From an uncultured Actinomycetes bacterium (GTDB taxonomy: Bacteria; Actinomycetota; UBA4738; HRBIN12): a stretch of DNA of 64,000 bases. Below the pieces are notes generated by a model that worked only from the letters and a program-made list of their open reading frames with translations, did no database searches and was not told the DNA's origin. Where the stretch lies: NCBI GenBank assembly GCA_963704725.1, contig OY969934.1:1685138-1749137 (forward strand), read 5' to 3'. Below, one piece after another: positions 5,941 through 53,111 of the stretch. Each line of letters opens with the position of its first letter. Positions within the stretch are counted from its first letter, which is position 1. The position numbers and the translations under genes are program-made.

Positions 5941-6340
5941 GGAGGAGTCGGCCGGGCGGCCGCGGGCGGAAACGCTCGAGGAAAGTCCGGGCTCCGAAGG
6001 GCAGGGTGCTGGGTAACGCCCAGGCGGGGCGACCCGCGGAAAGCGCCACAGAGAACAGACCGCCGCGCGAGCGGTGAGGGTGAAACGGTGAGGTAAGAGC
6101 TCACCAGCGGACCGGGTGACCGGCCCGGCTCGGCAAGCCCCACCCGGAGCAAGGCCAAGCAGGGAGCGGTCGTCGGGCTCCGGCAGCGATGCCGCCCCGG
6201 CGAGAAGGACGGCCCGTCCGTGCTCCCGGGTCGGCCGCACGAGGGCGTCGGCCCCGGGGTCTCGTAAGGGACCCAGAGAGATGGTCGCCGGGCGGTCGCG
6301 AGACCGCCGCACAGAACCCGGCTTACAGGCCGGCTCCTCC
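5941..6340 (+). ncRNA. rnpB: RNase P RNA, bacterial type A
   Basis: Universal P4 strands present: GAGGAAAGTCCGGGCTCC near the 5' end and ACAGAACCCGGCTTA near the 3' end; also GGTAACGCC, AGGGTGAAA, GGTAAGAGC, CACCCGGAGCAAGGCCAA. P1 pairs GGAGGAGTCGGCC (5941-) with GGCCGGCTCCTCC (-6340). Ends are +/- a few nt. Confidence 0.9.
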
Positions 6341-6348
6341 ACCTCGCG

Positions 6349-39139: not shown

Positions 39140-39310
39140 CGGGGCCGGGCCGATCCCGACCCCGCGAAGAGGGAAGCCGGTGAGAATCCGGCGCGGTCGC
39201 GCCACTGTGACCGGGGAGCGAACCCGACGGAACCACTGGGCCCACGGGCCCGGGAAGGGTCGGGGGAGCGCAGATCCGGGAGCCAGGAGACCTGCCTCGA
39301 GGGCCCCACG
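39140..39310 (+). promoter_or_regulatory. cobalamin (B12) riboswitch
   Basis: GGGAAGCCGGTGAGAATCCGGCGCGGTCGCGCCACTGTGA core and the B12 box AGCCAGGAGACCTGCC (about 39281-39296); immediately upstream of an AAAGGAG RBS and the GTG start of a BtuF-like gene. Boundaries approximate. Confidence 0.8.
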
Positions 39311-42549: not shown

Positions 42550-42574
<25 letters not shown>

Positions 42575-43851
42575 TGGAAGGGGACGACCGTCCCGGTTCC
42601 GGTCTCGGGCGCGGGCTCCCGTGCCGGGGCGGGCGGAGCCGCCTCCGCCTCGACCTCCGCGATCGAGGGCGGCGTCGTCACGGTCTGACCCTCGTGCGCC
42701 GGGATGACGAACGAGACGCGCGTGCCCCCGATCGGCAGCGGCTCGGCCCACATGATCCCGCCGTGCTGCAGGACGATCTGCCGGGCCATGTGCAGGCCCA
42801 CCCCCGCGCCGGAGCGCTCCTTGCGCAGGATGTCCTCGCCGGCGGTGAAGGGCTCGTTGAAGGCCTTCGCCACGACGTCGCGGCGGACCCCGGAGCCGTG
42901 GTCGGTGACCGAGACGACCACGCCCTCGGACATGTCCCGCGCCCTGAGCACCACGGGCTGGTCCTCGGGCGAGTAGCGGCAGGCGTTGTCCAGGAGCTGC
43001 CGGACCACCTCGGCGAACCGAACGGGATCGGCGGGACCGTCCAGCCGGTCCGGGACCTCGCGGCGGATCTCGATCCCCGGGTACTGGCGGCCGATCTCGT
43101 CCGCGACGTGCGACAGGATCGGCGCCAGGTCGACGACGGTGAGCTTGATGGTCAGCTGGCCGCGATCCAGGTCGGCGATCGTCAGCATCTCGTCGATCAG
43201 CATCATGAGCTTCTCGAGCGAGCCCTCGAGCTGCCCCAGGAACTCGAACTGTTCCTCCTCCGGCAGGCCGCGGTTCTTGAGGACGTAGGCGATGCCCTTG
43301 GCCACGGTGACCGGCGTGCGCAGCTCGTGCGAGATGTTGGCCAGGAAGTCGGCCTTGGCGGTGGTGAGGGACTCCAGCCGCTCGGACACCTCGCCGAGGG
43401 CGATCTCCAGGTCGCGTCGCTGCGTGGACTCGGCCACGAGACGATCGGAGATGAGGGCGCTCACGCGGTGGCTGAGCGCCACGTTGCCGTCGACCACCGA
43501 GCGGATGGCCCGGAGCACCGACTCGGGACCGTCCTCCTTGAGGAGGTAGGCGACGGCGCCGGCATCGAGCATCTGGGCCGCGGTGACCGGCGAGGAGACG
43601 TTCGTCCAGCACATGACGGACGTCTCGGGCACGATGGCCAGGAGTCGGCGGACCAGATCCGTGCCCGACAGGCCCTCGAGCCCGATCTCGGCCACCACGA
43701 CGGCCGGCTGGGTGCGGGCGGCGACCTCGACGGCGCGGAAGCCGTCGGTGACGACCTCCATCTCCAGGCCGGCGCCCGACTTCAGGAGCGTGTACTGGAG
43801 CTGCGCGAGGCCGTCGGCGGTGTCGCAGAGCAGCACCTTCGTGGGCATCAT
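42550..43851 (-). CDS. cytoplasmic histidine kinase with N-terminal receiver-like domain
   Basis: 433 aa; no TM segment; REC-like N-terminus in which the phospho-acceptor position appears to be Glu (VVVAEIGLEG); H-box ISHELRTPV; HATPase_c. Confidence 0.8.
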
Positions 43852-43911
43852 CGGTTGTATCGGCGCCCGGCCAACGGGGTTGAGCCGGCGCGGACCCCCC
43901 CGCGAGTGCGG

Positions 43912-44574
43912 CTACTCGACGAGGCCGCTGCGGATGGCGATCGCGACCGCCTGAGCACGGTCGTTCGCGCCGAGCTTCTCGAAGATGCGCTCGAGGTGCG
44001 TCTTCACGGTGTGCGGGGAGATGCCGAGGTCGTGGGCGACCTCCTTGGTCGTCGCGCCGTAGGCCACCTTCTGGAGGATCTCCTTCTCCCGCTTGGACAG
44101 GGGGGGCGCCTCGACCCGCTTCTCGGCGATCTGAACCTCTTCGATGAAGGCCCGGGTGAGCTGGGGATGGATGACCGCCTTGCCCTCCAGGGCGAGGCGG
44201 GCCGCGTTCACGAGCTCGTCGGCCGAGGCGTCCTTGAGGAGGTAGCCGGAGACGCCGGCCTGGATCGCCTCGGAGATCGAGGCGCGGGACTCGTCGACCG
44301 TGAACAGGATCACCCGGGTGTCGGGCGAGCTCAGGCGGATCGCCTTGGTCGCCTCGATCCCGTTCATCCCGGGCATCCGGACGTCCATGAACACGATGTC
44401 GGGCGTGAGGTCGCCGGCCTTGCGAACGGCGTCCTCGCCGCTGTCGGCCTCGCCGATCACGACCACGTCGTTGGCCAGGTCGAGCGCCGCGTGGAGCCCC
44501 TCGCGGGTGACCGGGTGGTCGTCCACGATGAGGATGCGGATGCGGTGGGTGTCGTCTCTCGTCGTCTCGCTCAT
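43912..44574 (-). CDS. NarL/LuxR-family response regulator
   Basis: 220 aa; receiver (ILIVDDHP, FMDVRMPG) plus C-terminal LuxR-type HTH. Confidence 0.9.
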   Translation of the reverse strand: MSETTRDDTHRIRILIVDDHPVTREGLHAALDLANDVVVIGEADSGEDAVRKAGDLTPDIVFMDVRMPGMNGIEATKAIRLSSPDTRVILFTVDESRASISEAIQAGVSGYLLKDASADELVNAARLALEGKAVIHPQLTRAFIEEVQIAEKRVEAPPLSKREKEILQKVAYGATTKEVAHDLGISPHTVKTHLERIFEKLGANDRAQAVAIAIRSGLVE

Positions 44575-44636: not shown

Positions 44637-45032
44637 TTGCTCATGGACGAAACCCGAACCGGTCCTGGCCCGATCCACGCCGGTCCCGTCCCCGAAGCGT
44701 CCGAGACCCCGTCGGCCACCTCGGGGGGGACCGTGACCGAGGAGCGGGTCCTCGACGCCCTCCGCCACGTGGTCGACCCGGAGCTCGGCATCAACATCGT
44801 CGACCTGGGGCTCGTGTACGAGGTGGACGTCAGCGCCGAGGGCGCCGTCCACGTGGAGTACACCCTGACCACGATGGGCTGCCCCATCGGCCCCCTGATC
44901 GAGCAGCAGATGGAGTCGTTCCTGTCCGGCGTCCCCGGCGTGAGCGGAGTCGAGGCCGAGATGGTCCTGCGTCCGCCCTGGACCCCGGAGATGATGTCCG
45001 AGGAGGCCAAGGCCGCCCTCGGCTACTTCTGA
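44637..45032 (+). CDS. DUF59 / SufT-like Fe-S assembly accessory protein
   Basis: 131 aa; VVDPELGINIVDLGLVY and conserved Cys in TMGCPIG. Confidence 0.8.
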   Translation: MLMDETRTGPGPIHAGPVPEASETPSATSGGTVTEERVLDALRHVVDPELGINIVDLGLVYEVDVSAEGAVHVEYTLTTMGCPIGPLIEQQMESFLSGVPGVSGVEAEMVLRPPWTPEMMSEEAKAALGYF

Positions 45033-45119
45033 TCGGCCCGCCACCCGGTTGACAGGTACGGGCCGTGGGAGTTGACTTGCACCTGCAAATCCGAGTGGTG
45101 GAGTCGAATTCCGTGATCC

Positions 45120-45275
45120 GGACCCGGTGCCGAGGCCTGGTGGGGGCGATGATCCCCTCCCGCCTGTGCTGTCCGGCGCCGTGGTGCGCCCAGCAGGGCG
45201 CGTAGGGTCGCCGAGCGGTTCACCCCACCATCCGCAGAGCCGGAGAGCAAGGGCCGCAGGCGCGGCCCTTTTCCA
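45120..45275 (+). ncRNA. candidate small RNA (6C-like: C-rich loops plus intrinsic terminator)
   Basis: Non-coding 300 nt gap; C-rich tracts GATCCCCTCCCGCC and GCGG-TTCACCCCACCAT-CCGC that can sit in hairpin loops, followed by the terminator hairpin at 45251-45275. Upstream TTGACA-like hexamers at about 45049 and 45072. Not verified by folding. Confidence 0.3.
45251..45275 (+). terminator. intrinsic terminator-like hairpin
   Basis: GGGCCGC-AGGC-GCGGCCC (7 bp GC stem) followed by TTTTCC. Confidence 0.5.
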
Positions 45276-45335
45276 TTGGACCCCCACGGCCGAGGCGGAA
45301 GCGCCGTCGGCCCCACCCGAGAGGAGGAGATGGCG

Positions 45336-46178
45336 ATGGCGGGCTACGCCAACCCCGACGCGCTCGTCGAGACCGACTGGCTCGAGGACCACCTCGAGGA
45401 CGAGAACGTCCAGGTGATCGAGGTGGACGAGGACACGACGGCTTACGACAAGGGCCACATCCGCGGCGCGGTCGGCTGGAACTGGAGCACCGACCTGCAC
45501 GCGGAGGTGGGCCGGGAGTACCTCGGCCAGCGGGAGCTCGCGGACCTGCTCTCGCGCGCCGGCGTCGGCGAGAGCACGACGGTGGTGCTCTACGGAGGGA
45601 ACAACAACTGGTTCGCCGCCTACGCCTACTGGATCCTGAAGCTCCGCGGCTTCGACGCCGTCCGTCTGCTGAACGGCGGCCGGAAGAAGTGGGAGTTGGA
45701 GAGCCGGGAGCTGACGCAGGACGCCCCCTCGCCTACGCCGACCGGCATCGTCGTCTCCGGATCCGAGCGCGCCGGTATCCGGGCGCTGCGCGACGAGGTG
45801 TTGGCCAAGCTCGGCGGAGCGGCGTTCGTGGACGTCCGGTCTCCGGAGGAGTACCGGGGGGAGAAGCTCGCCCCCGATCACCTGCCGCAGGAGCAGTCGC
45901 AGGTGCCCGGCCACATCCCCGGCGCCGCGAACATCCCCTGGGTCAAGGCGGCGAACGAGGACGGCACGTTCAAGTCGGCGGACGAGCTCCGCGCGCTCTA
46001 CGAGCCCGAGGGCGTGACCCCCGACACGGAGGTCATCGCGTACTGCCGGATCGGGGAGCGGAGCTCGCACACGTGGTTCGCGCTCACCGAGCTGCTCGGG
46101 TACGAGAACGTCAAGAACTACGACGGCTCGTGGACCGAGTACGGGTCGCTGGTCGGCGTCCCGGTCGAGAAGGGCTGA
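45336..46178 (+). CDS. thiosulfate sulfurtransferase (tandem rhodanese domains)
   Basis: Track ORF 45276..46178; start taken at second ATG (45336), 8 nt after GAGGAGG. Active-site loop CRIGERSS. Confidence 0.9.
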
Positions 46179-46247
46179 GCGCGCCAGGGCGCTCCTCGGG
46201 GGGCCCGTCCTCCGGGGTGCGGGGAAAGGATGCCCCCTCTCCCTCCG

Positions 46248-46280
46248 AAGGGGCGGGTGCCGTTCGGCACCCGCCCCTTT
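46248..46280. repeat. perfect palindrome (14-bp arms) in the rhodanese-sufB intergenic region
   Basis: AAGGGGCGGGTGCC-GTTCG-GCACCCGCCCCTT; no U-tract on either strand, so a protein operator (for example SufR-type) or bidirectional hairpin rather than a classical terminator. Confidence 0.4.
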
Positions 46281-46408
46281 CCCCTCGGCGCTGCCCCGCC
46301 CGGCGCCGTGCGCCTGTGCTCGAATTCCGACCCCTCGGATGGACTTACCTCGTCGCCGTGGGTATCCTCGATGGGAGGAGTGAGGGCCGCTCCTCGGGAA
46401 GGACCACC

Positions 46409-47821
46409 GTGGCCGTCACCCAGGAAGAGCATCTCCGGGAGCTCAGCAAGGGCTACCGCTTCGGCTGGAAGGACCCGTCCCACTCGGTCTTCACGCCGAA
46501 GATGGGCCTGAGCGCCGCGGTGGTCGAGGAGATCTCGGCGCTGAAGGACGAACCCGACTGGATGCGGAAGTACCGGCTGAAGGCGCTGAAGCACTTCGAG
46601 CAGCGCCCCATGCCGTGGTGGGGGGCCGACCTGTCGGGGATCGACTTCGACGATATCTACTACTTCATCCGCTCGACCGAGAAGCAGGCGCAGAACTGGG
46701 ACGAGCTGCCCGACGACATCCGCGGGACGTGGGACAAGCTGGGGATCCCGGAGGCGGAGAAGAAGTTCCTGGGCGGGGTCTCGGCGCAGTACGAGAGCGA
46801 GGTCGTCTACCACAAGATCAAGCAGGAGCTCGACGACATGGGCGTCCTGTTCGCAGACATGGACACGGCGCTCCGCGACCACCCCGACATCGTCAAGGAA
46901 TACTTCGGGACGATCATCCCGCCCAACGACAACAAGTTCGCCGCGCTGAACTCGGCGGTGTGGTCGGGGGGATCGTTCATCTACGTCCCGCCCGGCGTGC
47001 ACGTCGACATCCCGCTGCAGGCGTACTTCCGGATCAACGCGGAGGCGATGGGGCAGTTCGAGCGGACGATGATCATCGCGGACGAGGGCAGCTACGTGCA
47101 CTACGTCGAGGGCTGCTCGGCCCCGATCTACACGCGCGATTCGCTCCACTCGGCGGTCGTCGAGATCATCGTGAAGAAGGGCGCCCGCGTCCGCTACACG
47201 ACCATCCAGAACTGGTCGAACAACGTCTACAACCTCGTTACCAAACGCGCGGCAGCGTACGAGGACTCCGTGATGGAGTGGATCGACGGCAACATCGGCT
47301 CGAAGGTGACGATGAAGTACCCGTCTATCTACCTGCTCGGCAAGGGCGCCCGGGGCGAGGTCCTCTCAGTGGCGTTCGCCGGTGAGGGGCAGCACACGGA
47401 CGCCGGCGGCAAGGCGATCCACGCCGCGCCGTTCACCACCTCGATCATCAACAGCAAGTCGGTGAGCAAGGGCGGCGGGCGCACCGGGTACCGAGGGCTC
47501 GTCCGCATCGAGCCGGGTGCGCACCACGCGAAGTCAATGGTCCGCTGCGACGCGCTGATCCTCGACGAGATCTCGCGCTCGGACACCTACCCGTACGTCG
47601 AGGTCGAGGAGCAGACCGCGCAGCTCGGCCACGAGGCGTCGGTCGCCCGGATCGGCGAGGACCAGCTCTTCTACCTCATGAGCCGTGGGCTGTCCGAAGC
47701 CGAGGCATCGGCGATGATCGTGAACGGCTTCATCGAGCCGATCACCCGCGAGCTGCCCATGGAGTACGCCGTCGAGCTCAACCGCCTGATCGAGCTCCAG
47801 ATGGAAGGCGCGATCGGCTAG
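46409..47821 (+). CDS. sufB: Fe-S cluster assembly protein SufB (intein-free)
   Basis: In-frame C-terminal 470 aa of track ORF 45689..47821 from GTG 46409 (RBS GGGAAGGA); conserved SufB sequence throughout. Confidence 0.95.
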
Positions 47822-48098
47822 CGAGCGTCAGCGGCTCCAACACGGGCGAGCGGAGGATCGCCGTCCGGATGGCGTCCTCGTGGGACGGGCAGCAGGCGCT
47901 CCACGTCAGGTGATCGCCCGCACGGGAGGCGCGGATGTCGATGGGCCTCCTCCCGTGCGCCGGGCACCGCACGCGCCGGATCCTCGCCCGCGCGGCAGCG
48001 ACACCATCTCTCAGGGCCTCGCGCTTGACGCACTCCAACCACTCGTCGGCAGACACGGGGCGGCCATGCGCGTCCCGGAACTCGATATCGAGCTTCAC
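47778..48098 (-). CDS. hypothetical small protein (Cys/His-containing)
   Basis: C-terminal ~106 aa of track ORF 47778..48356 from GTG about 48098 (AGGAG upstream); CPAHGRR...[13 protein letters not shown]. Its 3' end overlaps the sufB stop by about 44 nt convergently. Confidence 0.3.
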
Positions 48099-48130
48099 CA
48101 GCACCTCCTGGCTTGATCGCGGGGGAGCGT

Positions 48131-49321
48131 TCACGGTGGACCTCGGTCCTCCAGCCGCGACCCATCCGGCCGGAAGAACGCCGGGCGCCCGTCGACGAGC
48201 TCGAGACGGAACCCGCCGGGCCGATGGACCAGCCGGTGGTGACGGCGGCACAGCAGAATCAGGTTCTGGATCGCGGTCGGACCGCCGTCGGCCCAGTGGA
48301 CCACATGATGAGAGTCGCACCACGTGTGAGGGCGTTCGCAGCCGGGGAACCGGCACCGGCGATCTCGAACCACCACGGCGCGCCGCATCGACGGCGGCAC
48401 CACGGGAGTCCTTCGTCCCACGTCCAGCGGCTCGGACCGTCCGGACAGCACCACACGGGTGACCGACGCGTCGCAGGCAAGTCGCCGAGCGGTCTCGACC
48501 GAGACGGGTCCGACGTCGTCGAGCTCGCTCGGGCCGGCCGCGGCGCCTGTCAGGGCGTCGGCCGGGAGCGTCACGGTGACGTGTGGTCGCTCGCCCGCCA
48601 CGCGGGGACGGTCGGCCAGGTCAAGCCACTGCCGGCAGATCTCGACCAGGGCGTCCGCGCGGCGCTGGGCGGGCGTCCGCTCGTCCTCGGGCCCTCGCGA
48701 TCGTGACTCGGCGTCGAGCACGGCTCGAAGCGCCGTGAGCAGGGTCTCACCGCCCTCGGGGTCGAGATCGAAGTCGCCCCGGACCATCCCGAGGAACGTC
48801 GGCGAGGCATGAAGTCGCCGTCGCGCGTGAAGCGCTTCGTCCCCGTCCCTCGCCTGCTCCCGCTCGACGATCTGGCGCCAATGCGCGGCGACCCGCTGCA
48901 GGGCCCCCGTCGAGTGGATCCGGGCGGCTTCCACGAGCTGGGCCTCCGAACGCGCGAACGCCTCTCGGTCGAGGTCGTGCGCCGTGGTGAGCACGCGCGC
49001 CGCGGAGAGCGACAGCTCGCCGTCCTCGAGCGCCCGCCGGGTCACCGGCATGTCTTCGAGCGCCCGAGCGACGCGCACCGACTCGCGGGCCGTCCCCCAG
49101 GCGACGTTGAACCTCGCGTTGAGCCAGGAGGCCGAGGACAGGTTCCCGTCGCGCTCGAACAGCCGACGCCGCTCGATGTCCGCCAGCCGCCGGAGCCGTT
49201 CGACCTCGAGCAGCTCCATCGCCCGGTGCAGCTCGGCGAAGTCCTCCTCGATGACCGCGTCCGGCAGCTCGGCAAGGAGCTCGGACTGCAACGCATCGAT
49301 GGCCGAGCGAAGCTCGCTCAA
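48131..49321 (-). CDS. DUF222 plus HNH endonuclease domain protein (REP13E12-like family)
   Basis: 396 aa; C-terminal HNH motif CRFPGCERPHTWCDSHHVVHWADGGPTAIQNLILLCRRHH preceded by the family-typical N-terminal region. Confidence 0.85.
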   Translation of the reverse strand: MSELRSAIDALQSELLAELPDAVIEEDFAELHRAMELLEVERLRRLADIERRRLFERDGNLSSASWLNARFNVAWGTARESVRVARALEDMPVTRRALEDGELSLSAARVLTTAHDLDREAFARSEAQLVEAARIHSTGALQRVAAHWRQIVEREQARDGDEALHARRRLHASPTFLGMVRGDFDLDPEGGETLLTALRAVLDAESRSRGPEDERTPAQRRADALVEICRQWLDLADRPRVAGERPHVTVTLPADALTGAAAGPSELDDVGPVSVETARRLACDASVTRVVLSGRSEPLDVGRRTPVVPPSMRRAVVVRDRRCRFPGCERPHTWCDSHHVVHWADGGPTAIQNLILLCRRHHRLVHRPGGFRLELVDGRPAFFRPDGSRLEDRGPP

Positions 49322-49361
49322 CGACTGTCCCCCCTCCCGAACGTACGTTCGAGATCGTAGC

Positions 49362-49751
49362 TCATGGCAGTGACATCGAACGCGCGACGTCGGCCACGGT
49401 CATCGGCTGGGGGAGGTCGGCCGCGAGGATCGCCCCGTCGAGGCCGAGCCGGCCGACCGCCAGCAACCACGGCGTGACCGAGGGGTCGATCACGCCGGCG
49501 ACGACGAGCAGCGCCATCGCGATGGCGAGGTCGAGCTCGCACGTCGGCCCACCGGAGATGGGCGGCTCGAGGTGAACGAAGGCGAGCGGCACCTCGTCGA
49601 GCAGCCCATCGTTGACGAGGGCGGCTCGCACGCGATCGGCCGTGGTGCGGCCGTATCCGGGCGGCAAGCCCATGATCTGAAAGCGATCCCCTGGCCTGGC
49701 CACCAGCTCGACGAGCCGGTCGTCGACCACACCCCACACGCGAACGCCCAC
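49362..49751 (-). pseudogene. 5' fragment of a comM/yifB-family (Mg-chelatase-like ATPase) gene
   Basis: 129 aa ORF matching only the ComM N-terminal domain (MGLPPGYGRTTADRVRAALVNDG...CELDLAIAMALLVVAG...GRLGLDGAIL), then a stop; no AAA+ Walker region anywhere downstream. Confidence 0.55.
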
Positions 49752-49869
49752 GCACGACCTCGAAGGAGCGGACGGCCGAGGGAGAAGGCGACCCTATCGC
49801 CGGGTACCGACAGCCACGGCGGTCGGGGGTCGTCCGTATAGTGGCCGCATCACGGGCAAGGGGCAGAGC

Positions 49870-51816
49870 GTGGACAACTTCCAGGAGAAAGTCGCCTTCA
49901 TCTGGTCGGTGGCCGACCTGCTCCGCGGCGACTACAAGCAGTCCGAGTACGGCAAGGTCATCCTGCCGCTGACCGTGCTCCGCCGTCTCGATTCCGTGCT
50001 GGAGCCGACCAAGTCGAAGGTCCTGAAGCGGCACAAGGAGCTCCAGGGCCGCCTCGAGAACGTCGAGCCGGTGCTCACGCAGATCACCGGGCACGGCTTC
50101 TACAACACGTCGCCCTTCACGTTCCGGACGCTCCTCGACGACCCGGACCACGTCGGCGAGAACCTGCGCCGCTACATCCTCGGGTTCGACCAGGGGACGC
50201 AGGACGTGATCGCCAAGTTCGAGCTCGAGGGCCAGATCCGGCGCCTCGAGCGCTCGAACCTCCTGTACATGGTCGTCTCGAAGTTCTGCGACATGGACCT
50301 GCACCCGGACCGGGTCTCGAACATCGAGATGGGCTACGTGTACGAGGAGCTCGTCCGCAAGTTCTCGGAGCTGTCGAACGAGACCGCCGGAGAGCACTTC
50401 ACCCCGCGCGAGGTCATCCGCCTGATGGTGAACATCCTGTTCGCCGGCGACCGGGACCTGCTGGCGAAGAAGGGCGCGATCGCCACGCTGTACGACCCGG
50501 CCTGCGGGACCGGTGGCATGCTGAGCGTGGCCGAGGACCACCTCCGGGCCCTGAACCCGGACGCCAAACTCCGCGTGTTCGGGCAGGAGCTGAACGCCGA
50601 GACGTACGCGGTCTGCCGCTCGGACATGATGCTGAAGGGCCAGGACGCGTCGAACATCTACTTCGGCAACTCGTTCACCGAGGACGGGTTGCCTGACTCC
50701 ACGTTCGACTACCTACTGGCGAATCCGCCGTTCGGCGTCGAGTGGAAGAAGGTCCAGGATCGGGTCCGCCAGGAGCACGACCGTGACGGCTACCAGGGGC
50801 GCTTCGGCGCCGGTTTGCCGAGGATCAACGACGGCTCGCTGCTGTTCCTGCAGCACATGATCTCGAAGATGAAGCCGCCCGAGAAGGGCGGCAGCCGCCT
50901 CGCCATCGTCTTCAACGCGTCGCCGCTGTTCACCGGCGCCGCCGGCTCGGGCGAGTCCGAGATCCGCCGCTGGATCATCGAGAACGACTCGCTCGAGGCG
51001 ATCGTCGGCCTGCCGGACCAGCTCTTCTACAACACCGGGATCTCGACGTACTTCTGGGTCCTCACGAACCGGAAGACCCCCGAGCGCCGGGGGAAGGTCC
51101 AGCTCGTCGACGCCCGCGAGCTGTGGACCAAGATGCGCAAGAGCCTCGGCGAGAAGCGCAAGGAGATCTCGAGCGAGCAGATCGAGGAGATCACGCGCCT
51201 GTGCGCGGAGGTCCAGGAGGGCGATCGCTGCAAGATCCTGCGGAACGAGGACTTCGGCTACCGCCGGATCACCGTCGAGCGACCACTCCGCGTGCGGTGG
51301 GAAGTGACCGAAGAGACGGCCGCGACGCTCGGCGCCTCGAAGGCGCTCACGAAGCTCGACGACGATGCTCGTGAGCGGCTGCTCGAAGCCGTCGATGGGC
51401 TGAAGGGAACGTCGACGACGGATCGGGACGTATTCGCGGAGAAGGTCGCTGGAGTGCTCGACGCCATGGGGAAGTTCGGCAAGCCAATGGAGAGGGCTAT
51501 CATCGAGGCGGCGACGGTCCGGGACCCCGAGGCCCCGCTCGTGACCGACAAGAAGGGGAATCCGGAGCCCGATCCTGAGCTGCGCGACTTCGAGAACGTG
51601 CCGCTCACCGAGGACGTCGGTGAGTACATGGAGCGCGAGGTCCTCCCCTTCGTCGACGCATGGGTCGACGAGTCGAAGACGAAGGTCGGGTACGAGATCC
51701 CGTTCACCCGGCACTTCTACGTGTACGTGCCTCCCCGGCCTCTCGAAGAGATCGACTCCGATATCAAGGCGCTCGAGCAGGAGATCCTCCAGCTCCTCCG
51801 CGAGGTAGCTGAGTGA
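49870..51816 (+). CDS. hsdM: Type I restriction-modification system, methyltransferase subunit
   Basis: 648 aa; N6-adenine MTase motifs DPACGTGG and NPPFG; GTG start. Confidence 0.95.
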   Translation: MDNFQEKVAFIWSVADLLRGDYKQSEYGKVILPLTVLRRLDSVLEPTKSKVLKRHKELQGRLENVEPVLTQITGHGFYNTSPFTFRTLLDDPDHVGENLRRYILGFDQGTQDVIAKFELEGQIRRLERSNLLYMVVSKFCDMDLHPDRVSNIEMGYVYEELVRKFSELSNETAGEHFTPREVIRLMVNILFAGDRDLLAKKGAIATLYDPACGTGGMLSVAEDHLRALNPDAKLRVFGQELNAETYAVCRSDMMLKGQDASNIYFGNSFTEDGLPDSTFDYLLANPPFGVEWKKVQDRVRQEHDRDGYQGRFGAGLPRINDGSLLFLQHMISKMKPPEKGGSRLAIVFNASPLFTGAAGSGESEIRRWIIENDSLEAIVGLPDQLFYNTGISTYFWVLTNRKTPERRGKVQLVDARELWTKMRKSLGEKRKEISSEQIEEITRLCAEVQEGDRCKILRNEDFGYRRITVERPLRVRWEVTEETAATLGASKALTKLDDDARERLLEAVDGLKGTSTTDRDVFAEKVAGVLDAMGKFGKPMERAIIEAATVRDPEAPLVTDKKGNPEPDPELRDFENVPLTEDVGEYMEREVLPFVDAWVDESKTKVGYEIPFTRHFYVYVPPRPLEEIDSDIKALEQEILQLLREVAE

Positions 51817-53111
51817 GGCAAGCATTCTCCATTGGCTCGAGTTGGCCGCTCACGAGACTCAAGCACCGAGTGGCATTCGCCGCAGGCGGGACGCCACCTG
51901 TGGATCGAACTGAGTACTGGGCGGAAGACAAGGGAGTGCCGTGGGTCACGATTGCGGATATGACTCGGGCGTTTCGCGTGACCACTACGGATCGCACACT
52001 GACTGAGGCGGGATTAGGCGTGATGAGACGTCGACTTGCGCCACCCGGCACCTTGTTGTTTGCGATGTATGCCAGCGTCGGCAAAGTGGGCCGGCTCGGG
52101 GTCGCGGCGACTTGGAATCAAGCGATTCTCGGCATGACGCCACGAGCAGGATGTTATGGCGGGTTCCTCGCCTATTGGCTCGAGGCGCTCCAACCAATCG
52201 TGCTTGGGTTGGCGCGAAGCAACACCCAGGACAACCTCAACGCAGAGCAGGTCGGCAACCTCCCATTCCCTACCATGCCTCTATCCATGCAGCGGGCGAT
52301 CGGCGACTTCCTCGACACCGAGATCGCTCGCATCGACGCGCTGCTCGACAAGAGGGGTCGGCTCCTCCGTCGACTGTCTGAGCGCAGGCGGTCAGTCACG
52401 TTCCTGGGAGTTACCGGCGTGCTAGCGCCCAGAGTCGCGACTCACGATCCAGGCCTTGCGTGGGCCCGCAAGATCCGTGCGCCCTGGCCTGCGGTCAAGC
52501 TCAAGCATGTCGCACGGCTTGGAACTGGCCACACGCCTAGCCGGACCCATTTGGAGTACTGGGAGGACTGCACCATCCCCTGGATCACGACCGGAGAGGT
52601 TCAGCAGGTTCGGGATGATCGAGCGGAGGTCATCACCGAGACGCGAGAGAAGATCAGTGAGGTCGGCCTCGCGCACTCGGCGGCCGAACTACACTCGGCA
52701 GGCACGGTCGTGCTGTGCAGAACCGCCTCAGCCGGCTACTCGGCAATCATGGGGTCGGACATGGCGACGAGCCAGGACTTCGCCACGTGGACGTGCTCGG
52801 AACGCCTCCTTCCCAGATACCTACTGATGTGCCTACGAGCGATGAGACCGGACCTCCTCGGACGGCTTGCGTTCGGCTCAACCCACAAAACGATCTACAT
52901 GCCCGACATCGAAGGGCTGAAGATCCCCTTGCCCACCGTTGAAGAGCAGCGGGAAGTAGTTGACGAGATCGACCGACAACTCTCGAAGATCGATGCACTC
53001 GCGGAGCGCATCGAGCGCCAGTTGGGCCTCCTCGCCGAGCGCCGTCAGGCGCTGATCACGGCTGCGGTCACCGGTCTCGTGGACGTGACCATGGACAGCG
53101 CCGAGACATAG
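51813..53111 (+). CDS. hsdS: Type I restriction-modification system, specificity subunit
   Basis: 432 aa; two target-recognition-domain-like halves separated by conserved coiled-coil regions; 4-nt overlap with hsdM. Confidence 0.9.
   Translation: MRQAFSIGSSWPLTRLKHRVAFAAGGTPPVDRTEYWAEDKGVPWVTIADMTRAFRVTTTDRTLTEAGLGVMRRRLAPPGTLLFAMYASVGKVGRLGVAATWNQAILGMTPRAGCYGGFLAYWLEALQPIVLGLARSNTQDNLNAEQVGNLPFPTMPLSMQRAIGDFLDTEIARIDALLDKRGRLLRRLSERRRSVTFLGVTGVLAPRVATHDPGLAWARKIRAPWPAVKLKHVARLGTGHTPSRTHLEYWEDCTIPWITTGEVQQVRDDRAEVITETREKISEVGLAHSAAELHSAGTVVLCRTASAGYSAIMGSDMATSQDFATWTCSERLLPRYLLMCLRAMRPDLLGRLAFGSTHKTIYMPDIEGLKIPLPTVEEQREVVDEIDRQLSKIDALAERIERQLGLLAERRQALITAAVTGLVDVTMDSAET

Follow-up and report, generated by a model that had tools for sequence, protein, structure and literature searches.

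A conserved tandem-cysteine leader reading frame upstream of a rhodanese gene in uncultured Actinomycetota: a candidate ribosome-mediated transcription attenuator

Introduction

To our knowledge, experiments have demonstrated control by cysteine leader peptides only in mycobacteria, as translational attenuation, and transcriptional attenuation by cysteine has been predicted only for cysS in Rhodobacterales. In mycobacteria, leaderless polycysteine small open reading frames (sORFs; Ms5788A/Rv0815A, the 'Cys ribulon') attenuate Cys operons, including cysA2 thiosulfate sulfurtransferase, through sequestration of the Shine-Dalgarno (SD) sequence (Canestrari et al. 2020, bioRxiv 10.1101/834739). 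A run of two Cys codons is sufficient there, and conservation also extends to some non-Cys residues, for reasons left unexplained (bioRxiv 10.1101/834739). The uORFC-8-2 motif before cysS in Rhodobacterales comprises an upstream open reading frame (uORF) whose two tandem Cys codons lie inside a stem; a terminator stem and a U-run come next (Brewer et al. 2021, PMC8632094). Cys leader peptides lacking evident terminators were predicted in Actinobacteria (Seliverstov et al., PMC1262725). The element described here comes from an uncultured Actinomycetes bacterium (contig OY969934.1). It lies in a 64,000-nucleotide (nt) stretch of DNA that was analysed as a whole (the window; G+C content 70.6%), within the 297-nt gap (45033-45329) that separates a DUF59/SufT-like gene from a two-domain rhodanese gene.

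The gap holds, with high confidence, a leader sORF of the translated type that is tied to sulfur genes. The segment 45049-45272 is probably the promoter and 5′ leader of the rhodanese gene, acting as a ribosome-mediated transcription attenuator that reports cysteine supply. A literature search found no description of this leader family.

Results

The original prediction, made from the sequence of the window, placed a 6C-like small RNA (sRNA) with C-rich loops and an intrinsic terminator between the SufT-like and rhodanese genes, and regarded the gap as free of reading frames. The position was borne out. The absence of a reading frame was an error, as a conserved sORF fills 45113-45205. The features of the locus are as follows.

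45049-45054, + strand: −35 box, TTGACA
45072-45077, + strand: putative −10 box, TTGACT, weak and assigned from its 17-nt spacing only
45077-45088, no strand assigned: perfect palindrome TTGCACCTGCAA, overlapping the promoter and unique in the window
45100-45103, + strand: SD sequence of the sORF, GGAG
45113-45205, + strand: leader sORF with GTG start, 30 codons (VIRTRCRGLVGAMIPSRLCCPAPWCAQQGA) and TAG stop at 45203-45205
45167-45172, + strand: tandem Cys codons TGC TGT, the proposed sensing site
45186-45201, + strand: hairpin H3, GCGCCC-AGCA-GGGCGC (45186-45191 pairs with 45196-45201), within the variable part of the sORF
45214-45222, + strand: candidate antiterminator segment AGCGGUUCA
45223-45248, + strand: C-rich, G-poor spacer holding the second C-tract
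45249-45272, + strand: intrinsic terminator AAGGGCCGC-AGGC-GCGGCCCTT, −17.5 kcal/mol, with a T-run to 45272
45319-46178, + strand: regulated gene, a two-domain rhodanese sulfurtransferase (SD GAGAGGAGGAG, ATG at 45330, PF00581 twice)

A protein search with the rhodanese, using one genome per GTDB species, gave 80 loci in metagenome-assembled genomes (MAGs) of uncultured soil and groundwater Actinomycetota, at 76-84% identity. The order SufT-like gene, gap and rhodanese gene was kept in 74 of the 80. The gap measured 250-310 nt in most loci; 11 loci had ~103-146 nt and two had 20-50 nt. Comparison of the related loci by blastn and MAFFT gave a conserved core that corresponds to 45114-45172 of the window. 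CTTGACA and the palindrome TTGCACCTGCAA were also conserved, as was, in many loci, a GGCCGC...GCGGCC hairpin with a T-rich tail. The sORF cassette preceded the rhodanese gene in 61 of the 74 syntenic MAG loci that retain both flanking genes. These 61 loci carry ATGATCCC..., which encodes MIPSRLCC, and then a tail of 1 to ~20 unrelated residues.

The conserved part of the sORF changes in the manner of protein-coding sequence. The family consensus peptide is x-I-R-T-R-(C/A/E)-x-G-(L/V)-V-(G/A)-A-M-I-P-S-R-L-C-C, and a period-three pattern reaches 36 nt upstream of the MIPSRLCC part, to the start codon. The start codon varies (ATG, GTG, TTG or CTG) and is preceded by GGAG, GGGAG or GGAGG; an SD-like 4-mer lies 8-18 nt before an NTG start in 119 of 146 non-redundant leaders. 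Substitutions were counted in 57 non-redundant leaders that were reached via the rhodanese gene, a set that is unbiased for the sORF. Over codons 2-20, the ratio of synonymous to nonsynonymous pairwise differences was 10421:5178 in frame, versus 2124:14184 and 1421:14395 in the two other frames. The entropy of third positions was 1.3-1.8 bits and that of positions 1 and 2 was near zero. All four bases were used at four-fold sites, and six-fold codons were switched between their two sets (CGN/AGR for Arg, TCN/AGY for Ser). Leaders with a CTG start (16 cases) still gave 461:75 over codons 2-12. The first 20 codons of the sORF are under protein-level selection, and this pattern, together with the SD sequence, suggests that the sORF is translated.

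In the window, the peptide consists of the conserved core VIRTRCRGLVGAMIPSRLCC and then a variable tail. Across leaders, the tail varies in sequence and length, and amino-acid conservation ends directly past the Cys pair. A motif, M-I-(R/P)-(T/S)-R-(L)-C-(C), is repeated within the peptide. The sORF peptide has no match in Pfam or NCBIfam, and RNAalifold found no consensus structure in the most conserved 96 nt. Two early candidate structures, a 5′ hairpin (AAUCCGA/UCGGAAUU) and an 'SD hairpin' (GGUGGGGG/CUCCCGCC), performed no better than shuffled or slid controls; the figure for the tested 5′ helices was 68.8%, versus 67.3% in the shuffles. Both were dropped as structures because the coding constraint explains the conservation.

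The conserved peptide ends in the tandem Cys codons. Cys19 was found in 57 of the 57 unbiased leaders and Cys20 in 54. The pair is fixed as TGC followed by TGT, and the second Cys codon was TGT in all of these 54. In the neighbouring genes at the same loci, TGC was used 135 times and TGT 21 times, so that TGC is about 6.5 times commoner. In a consensus fold of a 22-sequence subfamily, GCUGU of the Cys codons pairs with GCGGC ~40 nt downstream. TGC would pair with GCGGC at least as well as TGT. The fixed TGT may reflect slower wobble decoding at the second Cys codon.

Downstream of the Cys pair, the consensus layout of the same subfamily is the GCUGU/GCGGC helix with H3 nested inside, and then the terminator. 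H3 belongs to the consensus structure with compensatory changes (one pair, for example, is CG in 16 and UA in 6 sequences), and its 5′ arm usually begins 9-13 nt past the Cys pair. The presence of a hairpin alone (85%, versus 73% in shuffled controls) was insignificant at this G+C content; therefore, the support for H3 comes from its position and compensatory changes.

The GC hairpin with a T-run named by the original prediction is present (GGGCCGC-AGGC-GCGGCCC at 45251-45268, TTTT at 45269-45272). Of 174 leaders, 82 have a terminator-like hairpin, which nearly always lies +75 to +125 from the internal ATG. Over the whole data set, there are 62 distinct forms of the terminator hairpin, which have 45 different loops between them; the outer pairs show covariation and the loop sequences are hypervariable. 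In the 22-sequence consensus, the inner six pairs are fixed as GGCCGC/GCGGCC and the outer pairs covary, one of them being AU in 11, CG in 7 and GC in 3 sequences. The terminator and the −35 box are beyond chance, because both recur in related loci.

Between the sORF and the terminator lies the candidate antiterminator segment, whose family consensus GCGGYY is complementary to the 5′ arm of the terminator. GCGGCC can pair with this arm because it is identical to the 3′ arm; 98.5% of cells were paired in register, versus 26-58% when the segment was slid. GCGGYY was found at +62 to +67 in 49 of 73 leaders with a terminator versus 22 of 93 without one. The stop codon lay at −8/−7 or +2 to +12 nt from GCGGYY in 48 of the 49. 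The predicted antiterminator duplex has −11.2 kcal/mol versus −17.5 kcal/mol for the terminator hairpin. The ratio of these two energies resembles that of the E. coli trp leader. The following spacer is poorly conserved in sequence and keeps its composition (C 40%, G 22% over 46 family spacers).

Folds of RNA ending before the 3′ arm of the terminator told more than equilibrium folds. In consensus folds of this kind, a helix between GCGG and the 5′ arm is predicted. The helix is kept when the first 38 nt are masked, as by a ribosome on the Cys pair, and lost when the region of the stop codon is masked. In the window fold, 45215-45221 and 45251-45257 form a helix once the 3′ arm is left out and the sORF is masked as far as the stall site. 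This architecture fits a classical four-segment attenuator with a proposed switch between the two pairings.

A mycobacterial-type pairing between the sORF and the downstream SD was also tried. It was no better than in dinucleotide shuffles (mean z +0.31 for leaders with a terminator and +0.25 for those without), and this model was discarded for the family.

The cassette also precedes genes other than rhodanese. Metagenome contigs, scanned for exact matches to the MIPSRLCC codons, gave at least 120 loci. Among the matches listed, the full 20-residue peptide was present in 118 of 120 loci, rhodanese was downstream in 83 of 120, and 14 were too short for assignment. In 22 other loci among these matches, the sORF, often with the GGCCGC terminator, precedes other genes. 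These non-rhodanese targets are ferredoxin-type sulfite/nitrite reductases (PF01077 + PF03460, two kinds), a beta-class carbonic anhydrase (PF00484) followed by DUF1416, and DUF3303. One of the 22 (L166) has the sORF before a disrupted rhodanese start. This is how a cis element serving a whole sulfur-assimilation regulon would behave. A search of the window by pattern (3 mismatches allowed), by peptide regular expression and with nhmmer gave only the one copy of the sORF, and none of the related loci held it twice. The data thus give no example of a multi-copy regulon inside one genome.

The leader stands before the beta-class carbonic anhydrase homologue and then DUF1416 in L155, L156, L115, L161 and L164 (+189 to +1100 from the sORF) and in L141. 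DUF1416 is a known neighbour of the cysA2/sseA rhodaneses in mycobacteria, and enzymes of the beta-carbonic-anhydrase family include hydrolases of carbonyl sulfide (COS) and carbon disulfide (CS2). Because of this neighbourhood and these family members, a sulfur-releasing role is conceivable for the homologue.

The TTGACA-like hexamers of the original prediction are present, at the two promoter positions listed above. TTGAC occurs in 148 of 161 non-redundant related upstream regions, mostly 59-68 nt before the sORF start. Relatives show TACGGT, TAGGAT or GAGAAT at the place that matches the −10 box; a promoter scanner found no consensus promoter at this site. Transcription would start at ~45084-45090, a few bases past the −10 box, and the sORF would have a 5′ untranslated region (UTR) of ~25-30 nt, judging from the −35 distance of 59-68 nt and the SD distance of 8-18 nt. 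The palindrome, in the form T(T/C)GCAnnTGC(A/G)A, was found in 104 of 161 related promoters and in two discrete registers relative to the −35 box. In 39 cases it lies at +6, inside the spacer directly after the −35 box; in the other register (63 cases, the window among them) it lies at +28 to +31, immediately past the −10 box. Because the site keeps to the promoter and yet falls inside the transcribed region in some cases and outside it in others, it is best interpreted as a DNA site and not an RNA element. TTGCACCTGCAA is probably the operator of a repressor.

The sORF leader is absent and the gap between the SufT-like and rhodanese genes is short in 14 syntenic loci (L004, L012, L013, L016, L023, L027, L034, L046, L053, L059, L061, L062, L065 and L066). 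Several of these short-gap, leaderless loci retain the TTGACA promoter and the palindrome. The attenuator is lost or gained independently of the promoter/operator layer.

The two C-rich tracts on which the 6C proposal was built exist, CCCCTCCC at 45154-45161 and CACCCCACC at 45221-45229. RNA folding recovered the terminator hairpin and not the C-rich loops: in minimum-free-energy folds both tracts were paired, CACCCCACC partly, and the partner of CCCCUCCC was GGUGGGGG or the downstream SD. Of the two tracts, the first is coding (Ile-Pro-Ser-Arg codons). The second is not conserved and sits in the compositionally C-rich spacer. Fold energies were z = −2.0 to −2.7 against shuffles on either strand, only a modest gain; since they barely beat the shuffles, single-sequence folding says little here. 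A covariance-model search gave no match to 6C, either at gathering thresholds over the whole window or at E<=10 over 44950-45400. The permissive scan of 44950-45400 returned only chance-level hits at E<=10 (CRISPR-DR28 on the terminator, Vault and two lncRNA fragments). A simple promoter-plus-terminator scanner returned nothing in the gap between the SufT-like and rhodanese genes, nor in the second gap scanned, because its T-run and −10 criteria are too strict for sequence of ~70% G+C.

The flanking genes are as follows.

44637-45032: DUF59/SufT-like gene, PF01883
~46430-47821: SufB gene, downstream of rhodanese

The best NCBIfam match of the rhodanese was 3-mercaptopyruvate sulfurtransferase, below the cut-off of that model. 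Between rhodanese and sufB (46179-46430), a 15-bp G+C hairpin followed by TTT (~46247-46283) stands 3′ of rhodanese, and sufB begins ~150 nt further. Among relatives, the rhodanese-sufB distance ranges from ~100 to 2700 nt. Rhodanese looks monocistronic and not co-transcribed with sufB, because the hairpin and T-run end the rhodanese gene. Thus, of the proposed leader for a 'rhodanese-sufB unit', the leader for rhodanese stands and the joint unit with sufB is doubtful.

Other genes of the neighbourhood were also noted. Divergent upstream of the SufT-like gene, the − strand (42550-44574) carries genes for a response regulator of LuxR/GerE type (43912-44574) and for a hybrid histidine kinase (42550-43851). 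Their synteny is kept in 75 and 68 of 80 related loci, respectively, and the regulator is up to 96% identical. There may be a link between this pair and suf or sulfur regulation, or the TTGCACCTGCAA palindrome. No sufD, sufC or sufS was found 3′ of sufB (window 47821-53108). This region instead holds a DUF222/HNH endonuclease (48134-49321, − strand) and the type I restriction-modification genes HsdM (49870-51813) and HsdS (51813-53108), and it looks like a mobile or defence insertion adjoining sufB. The only matches to Rfam 15 at gathering level in the whole window were RNase P class A (5944-6341, 225 bits) and a cobalamin riboswitch (39140-39299, 90 bits).

Discussion

Conservation covers the tandem Cys pair, the hairpins and the terminator, and the cassette is associated with several genes of sulfur assimilation. 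The promoter-sORF-terminator-rhodanese layout and its recurrence before other sulfur-assimilation genes support the fallback of the original prediction, namely that the gap is a leader or attenuator of the gene downstream. We hold with moderate confidence that the element acts as a terminator/antiterminator switch that senses Cys-tRNA. The signal would be cysteine, and the switch would work in the following way.

A ribosome would load at GGAG/GTG (45100/45113) and translate the 30-codon sORF. When Cys-tRNA is ample, the ribosome would reach the stop codon (45203-45205) and cover the GCGG segment just past it. With GCGG covered, the GGGCCGC/GCGGCCC hairpin and the U-run would form, and most transcripts would stop near 45272. 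When Cys-tRNA is scarce, the ribosome would stall on TGC-TGT and leave GCGGUU (45215-45221) free. The free GCGGUU could then capture the 5′ arm (45251-45257) while the 3′ arm is still to be transcribed, and transcription would read through into rhodanese. The palindromic operator on the promoter would probably add a separate, protein-based control layer. The most likely outcome of this layout is that low cysteine raises the sulfur and cysteine genes. A terminated transcript of ~190 nt that ends near 45272 is expected, as an attenuated leader and not as the product of a dedicated sRNA gene. Such a leader would resemble an sRNA in RNA-seq and be mislabelled as one.

Several observations weigh against this switch. 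The antiterminator pairing is without covariation, as both partners are invariant. Equilibrium folds give the terminator whether or not the sORF is masked, and over 33 leaders the paired state of the 5′ arm fails to separate stalled from free conditions. Equilibrium folding is uninformative here because the switch would be kinetic. In the window, masking a single stalled-ribosome footprint was insufficient for the antiterminator to form, and the −10 hexamer is poor. Only ~46% of the leaders carry a recognisable terminator and 92 of 174 do not; because this leaves ~54% of them without one, a second output mechanism must exist. Finally, a plain sensor of tRNA charging leaves two things unexplained, the 18 conserved residues before the Cys pair and the invariant TGT at the second Cys codon.

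A nascent-peptide sensor is the strongest of the alternatives. Here xIRTRCxGLVGAMIPSRLCC, as an arrest peptide, would stall the ribosome from the exit tunnel at or just past the Cys pair, with the same terminator/antiterminator output. A signal related to sulfur, for instance free cysteine, would set it off, so that this explanation differs from Cys-tRNA sensing in the thing sensed and in the need for the peptide sequence. There is precedent in TnaC, which senses tryptophan as an arrest peptide. The 18 non-Cys residues are kept at the protein level across leaders of unrelated genes, with synonymous change free, and conservation stops abruptly at the proposed stall site after 20 residues, as a TnaC/SecM-type criterion asks. 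The internal repeat of the peptide is in line with such a role, and ribosomal interaction was also raised by the authors of the mycobacterial study for conserved non-Cys residues (bioRxiv 10.1101/834739). On the other side, the peptide has no likeness to a known arrest motif and belongs to no Pfam or NCBIfam family, and tRNA charging already accounts for tandem Cys codons before Cys and sulfur genes. We consider an arrest peptide unlikely, although worth keeping in mind. The wider form of this idea is similarly doubtful. It holds that a new class of arrest peptides reads cysteine or sulfur status within the ribosome, via sequence-dependent stalling at the rare UGU, and coordinates a sulfur 'ribulon' of rhodanese, sulfite reductase, beta-carbonic-anhydrase-like protein with DUF1416, and DUF3303 in abundant uncultured soil Actinomycetota. 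It would have two outputs, intrinsic termination in some leaders and another mechanism in the terminator-less ones.

Protein-level selection on 20 residues would also be expected of a free-standing small protein gene. In this case, the trans-acting product would be the 30-residue Cys-containing peptide, working for instance with the sulfurtransferase, and the hairpin would be the terminator of its own gene. The sORF has its own SD and start, with a terminator directly downstream, and a trans role of a leader peptide is described for peTrpL (PMC7968998). However, the C-terminal part varies from 1 to ~20 residues, and it is the RNA hairpin that is conserved there, not the peptide. The sORF always lies in cis before a sulfur-assimilation gene, no other promoter is evident in the remaining 45-200 nt, and many copies have no terminator. 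A small protein gene is improbable.

The coding signature largely refutes an sRNA. A trans-acting RNA of 6C type, another non-coding regulatory RNA or a riboswitch, running from the TTGACA promoter to the hairpin, is very improbable: the −35-like box and the terminator do bracket ~190 nt of slightly over-stable sequence (the z-scores above), and terminated leaders that derive from attenuators, such as rnTrpL (PMC7968998), can serve as sRNAs in other bacteria, but the region matches no Rfam family, 6C included, at E<=10, its C-tracts are unlooped and one of them is coding, its most conserved 96 nt gave no consensus structure and its tested 5′ helices did not exceed the shuffles, and its substitutions follow a period of three.

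If the attenuator works as proposed, an 'empty' intergenic gap becomes a defined regulatory unit. One cassette is reused before several sulfur-assimilation genes in widespread uncultured soil Actinomycetota. The element is missed by gene callers and RNA-family scans alike. Its 60-nt coding core could serve as a search handle for the sulfur regulon of organisms that cannot be cultured, and the conserved peptide with its fixed rare UGU is a testable case for leader peptides that are more than strings of regulatory codons.

The element resembles the mycobacterial polycysteine sORFs in being a short upstream reading frame with consecutive Cys codons, located before Cys and sulfur genes, with several independent leaders forming a regulon-like set. 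The mycobacterial sORFs are leaderless, whereas the sORF here is SD-led and has a 5′ UTR. Their Cys codons form a C-terminal poly-Cys run, in contrast to the two tandem Cys codons followed by a variable tail. Their mechanism is translational, whereas an intrinsic terminator is found here, in the window and in ~46% of the leaders. The 20-residue peptide is also far more conserved than in the mycobacterial sORFs.

With uORFC-8-2 it shares the predicted ribosome-mediated attenuation, a tandem-Cys uORF within a stem, and a terminator stem with a U-run. The two differ in lineage (soil Actinomycetota versus Alphaproteobacteria). They also differ in the genes concerned, which are rhodanese, sulfite reductase, beta-carbonic anhydrase and DUF3303 here and cysS there. 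UGC is dominant in uORFC-8-2, whereas the second codon here is always UGU, and no common peptide sequence is known.

Classical attenuators of the trp, his and ilvB type (Mycobacterium tuberculosis ilvB1, PMC13236596) have the same order of promoter, SD-led leader peptide with regulatory codons, antiterminator/terminator and structural gene, and there too a ribosome at the stop codon masks the antiterminator (PMC13236596). In contrast to them, the element here has cysteine as its regulatory amino acid and shows strong conservation of the peptide that precedes the regulatory codons, and the genes serve sulfur mobilisation and assimilation instead of forming a single biosynthetic operon. With 6C RNA (RF01066) the element shares its occurrence in high-G+C Actinomycetota, its C-rich tracts and a terminator-like hairpin at the end; unlike 6C RNA, it gave no covariance-model match, keeps its C-tracts out of hairpin loops, and consists of coding sequence acting in cis. 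The element is of the same kind as the known Cys leader attenuators and belongs to a distinct family, which is SD-led, carries a terminator and a long conserved peptide, and stands before other genes in another lineage. This family would add a terminator-based, SD-led version to the known forms of control by cysteine leader peptides.

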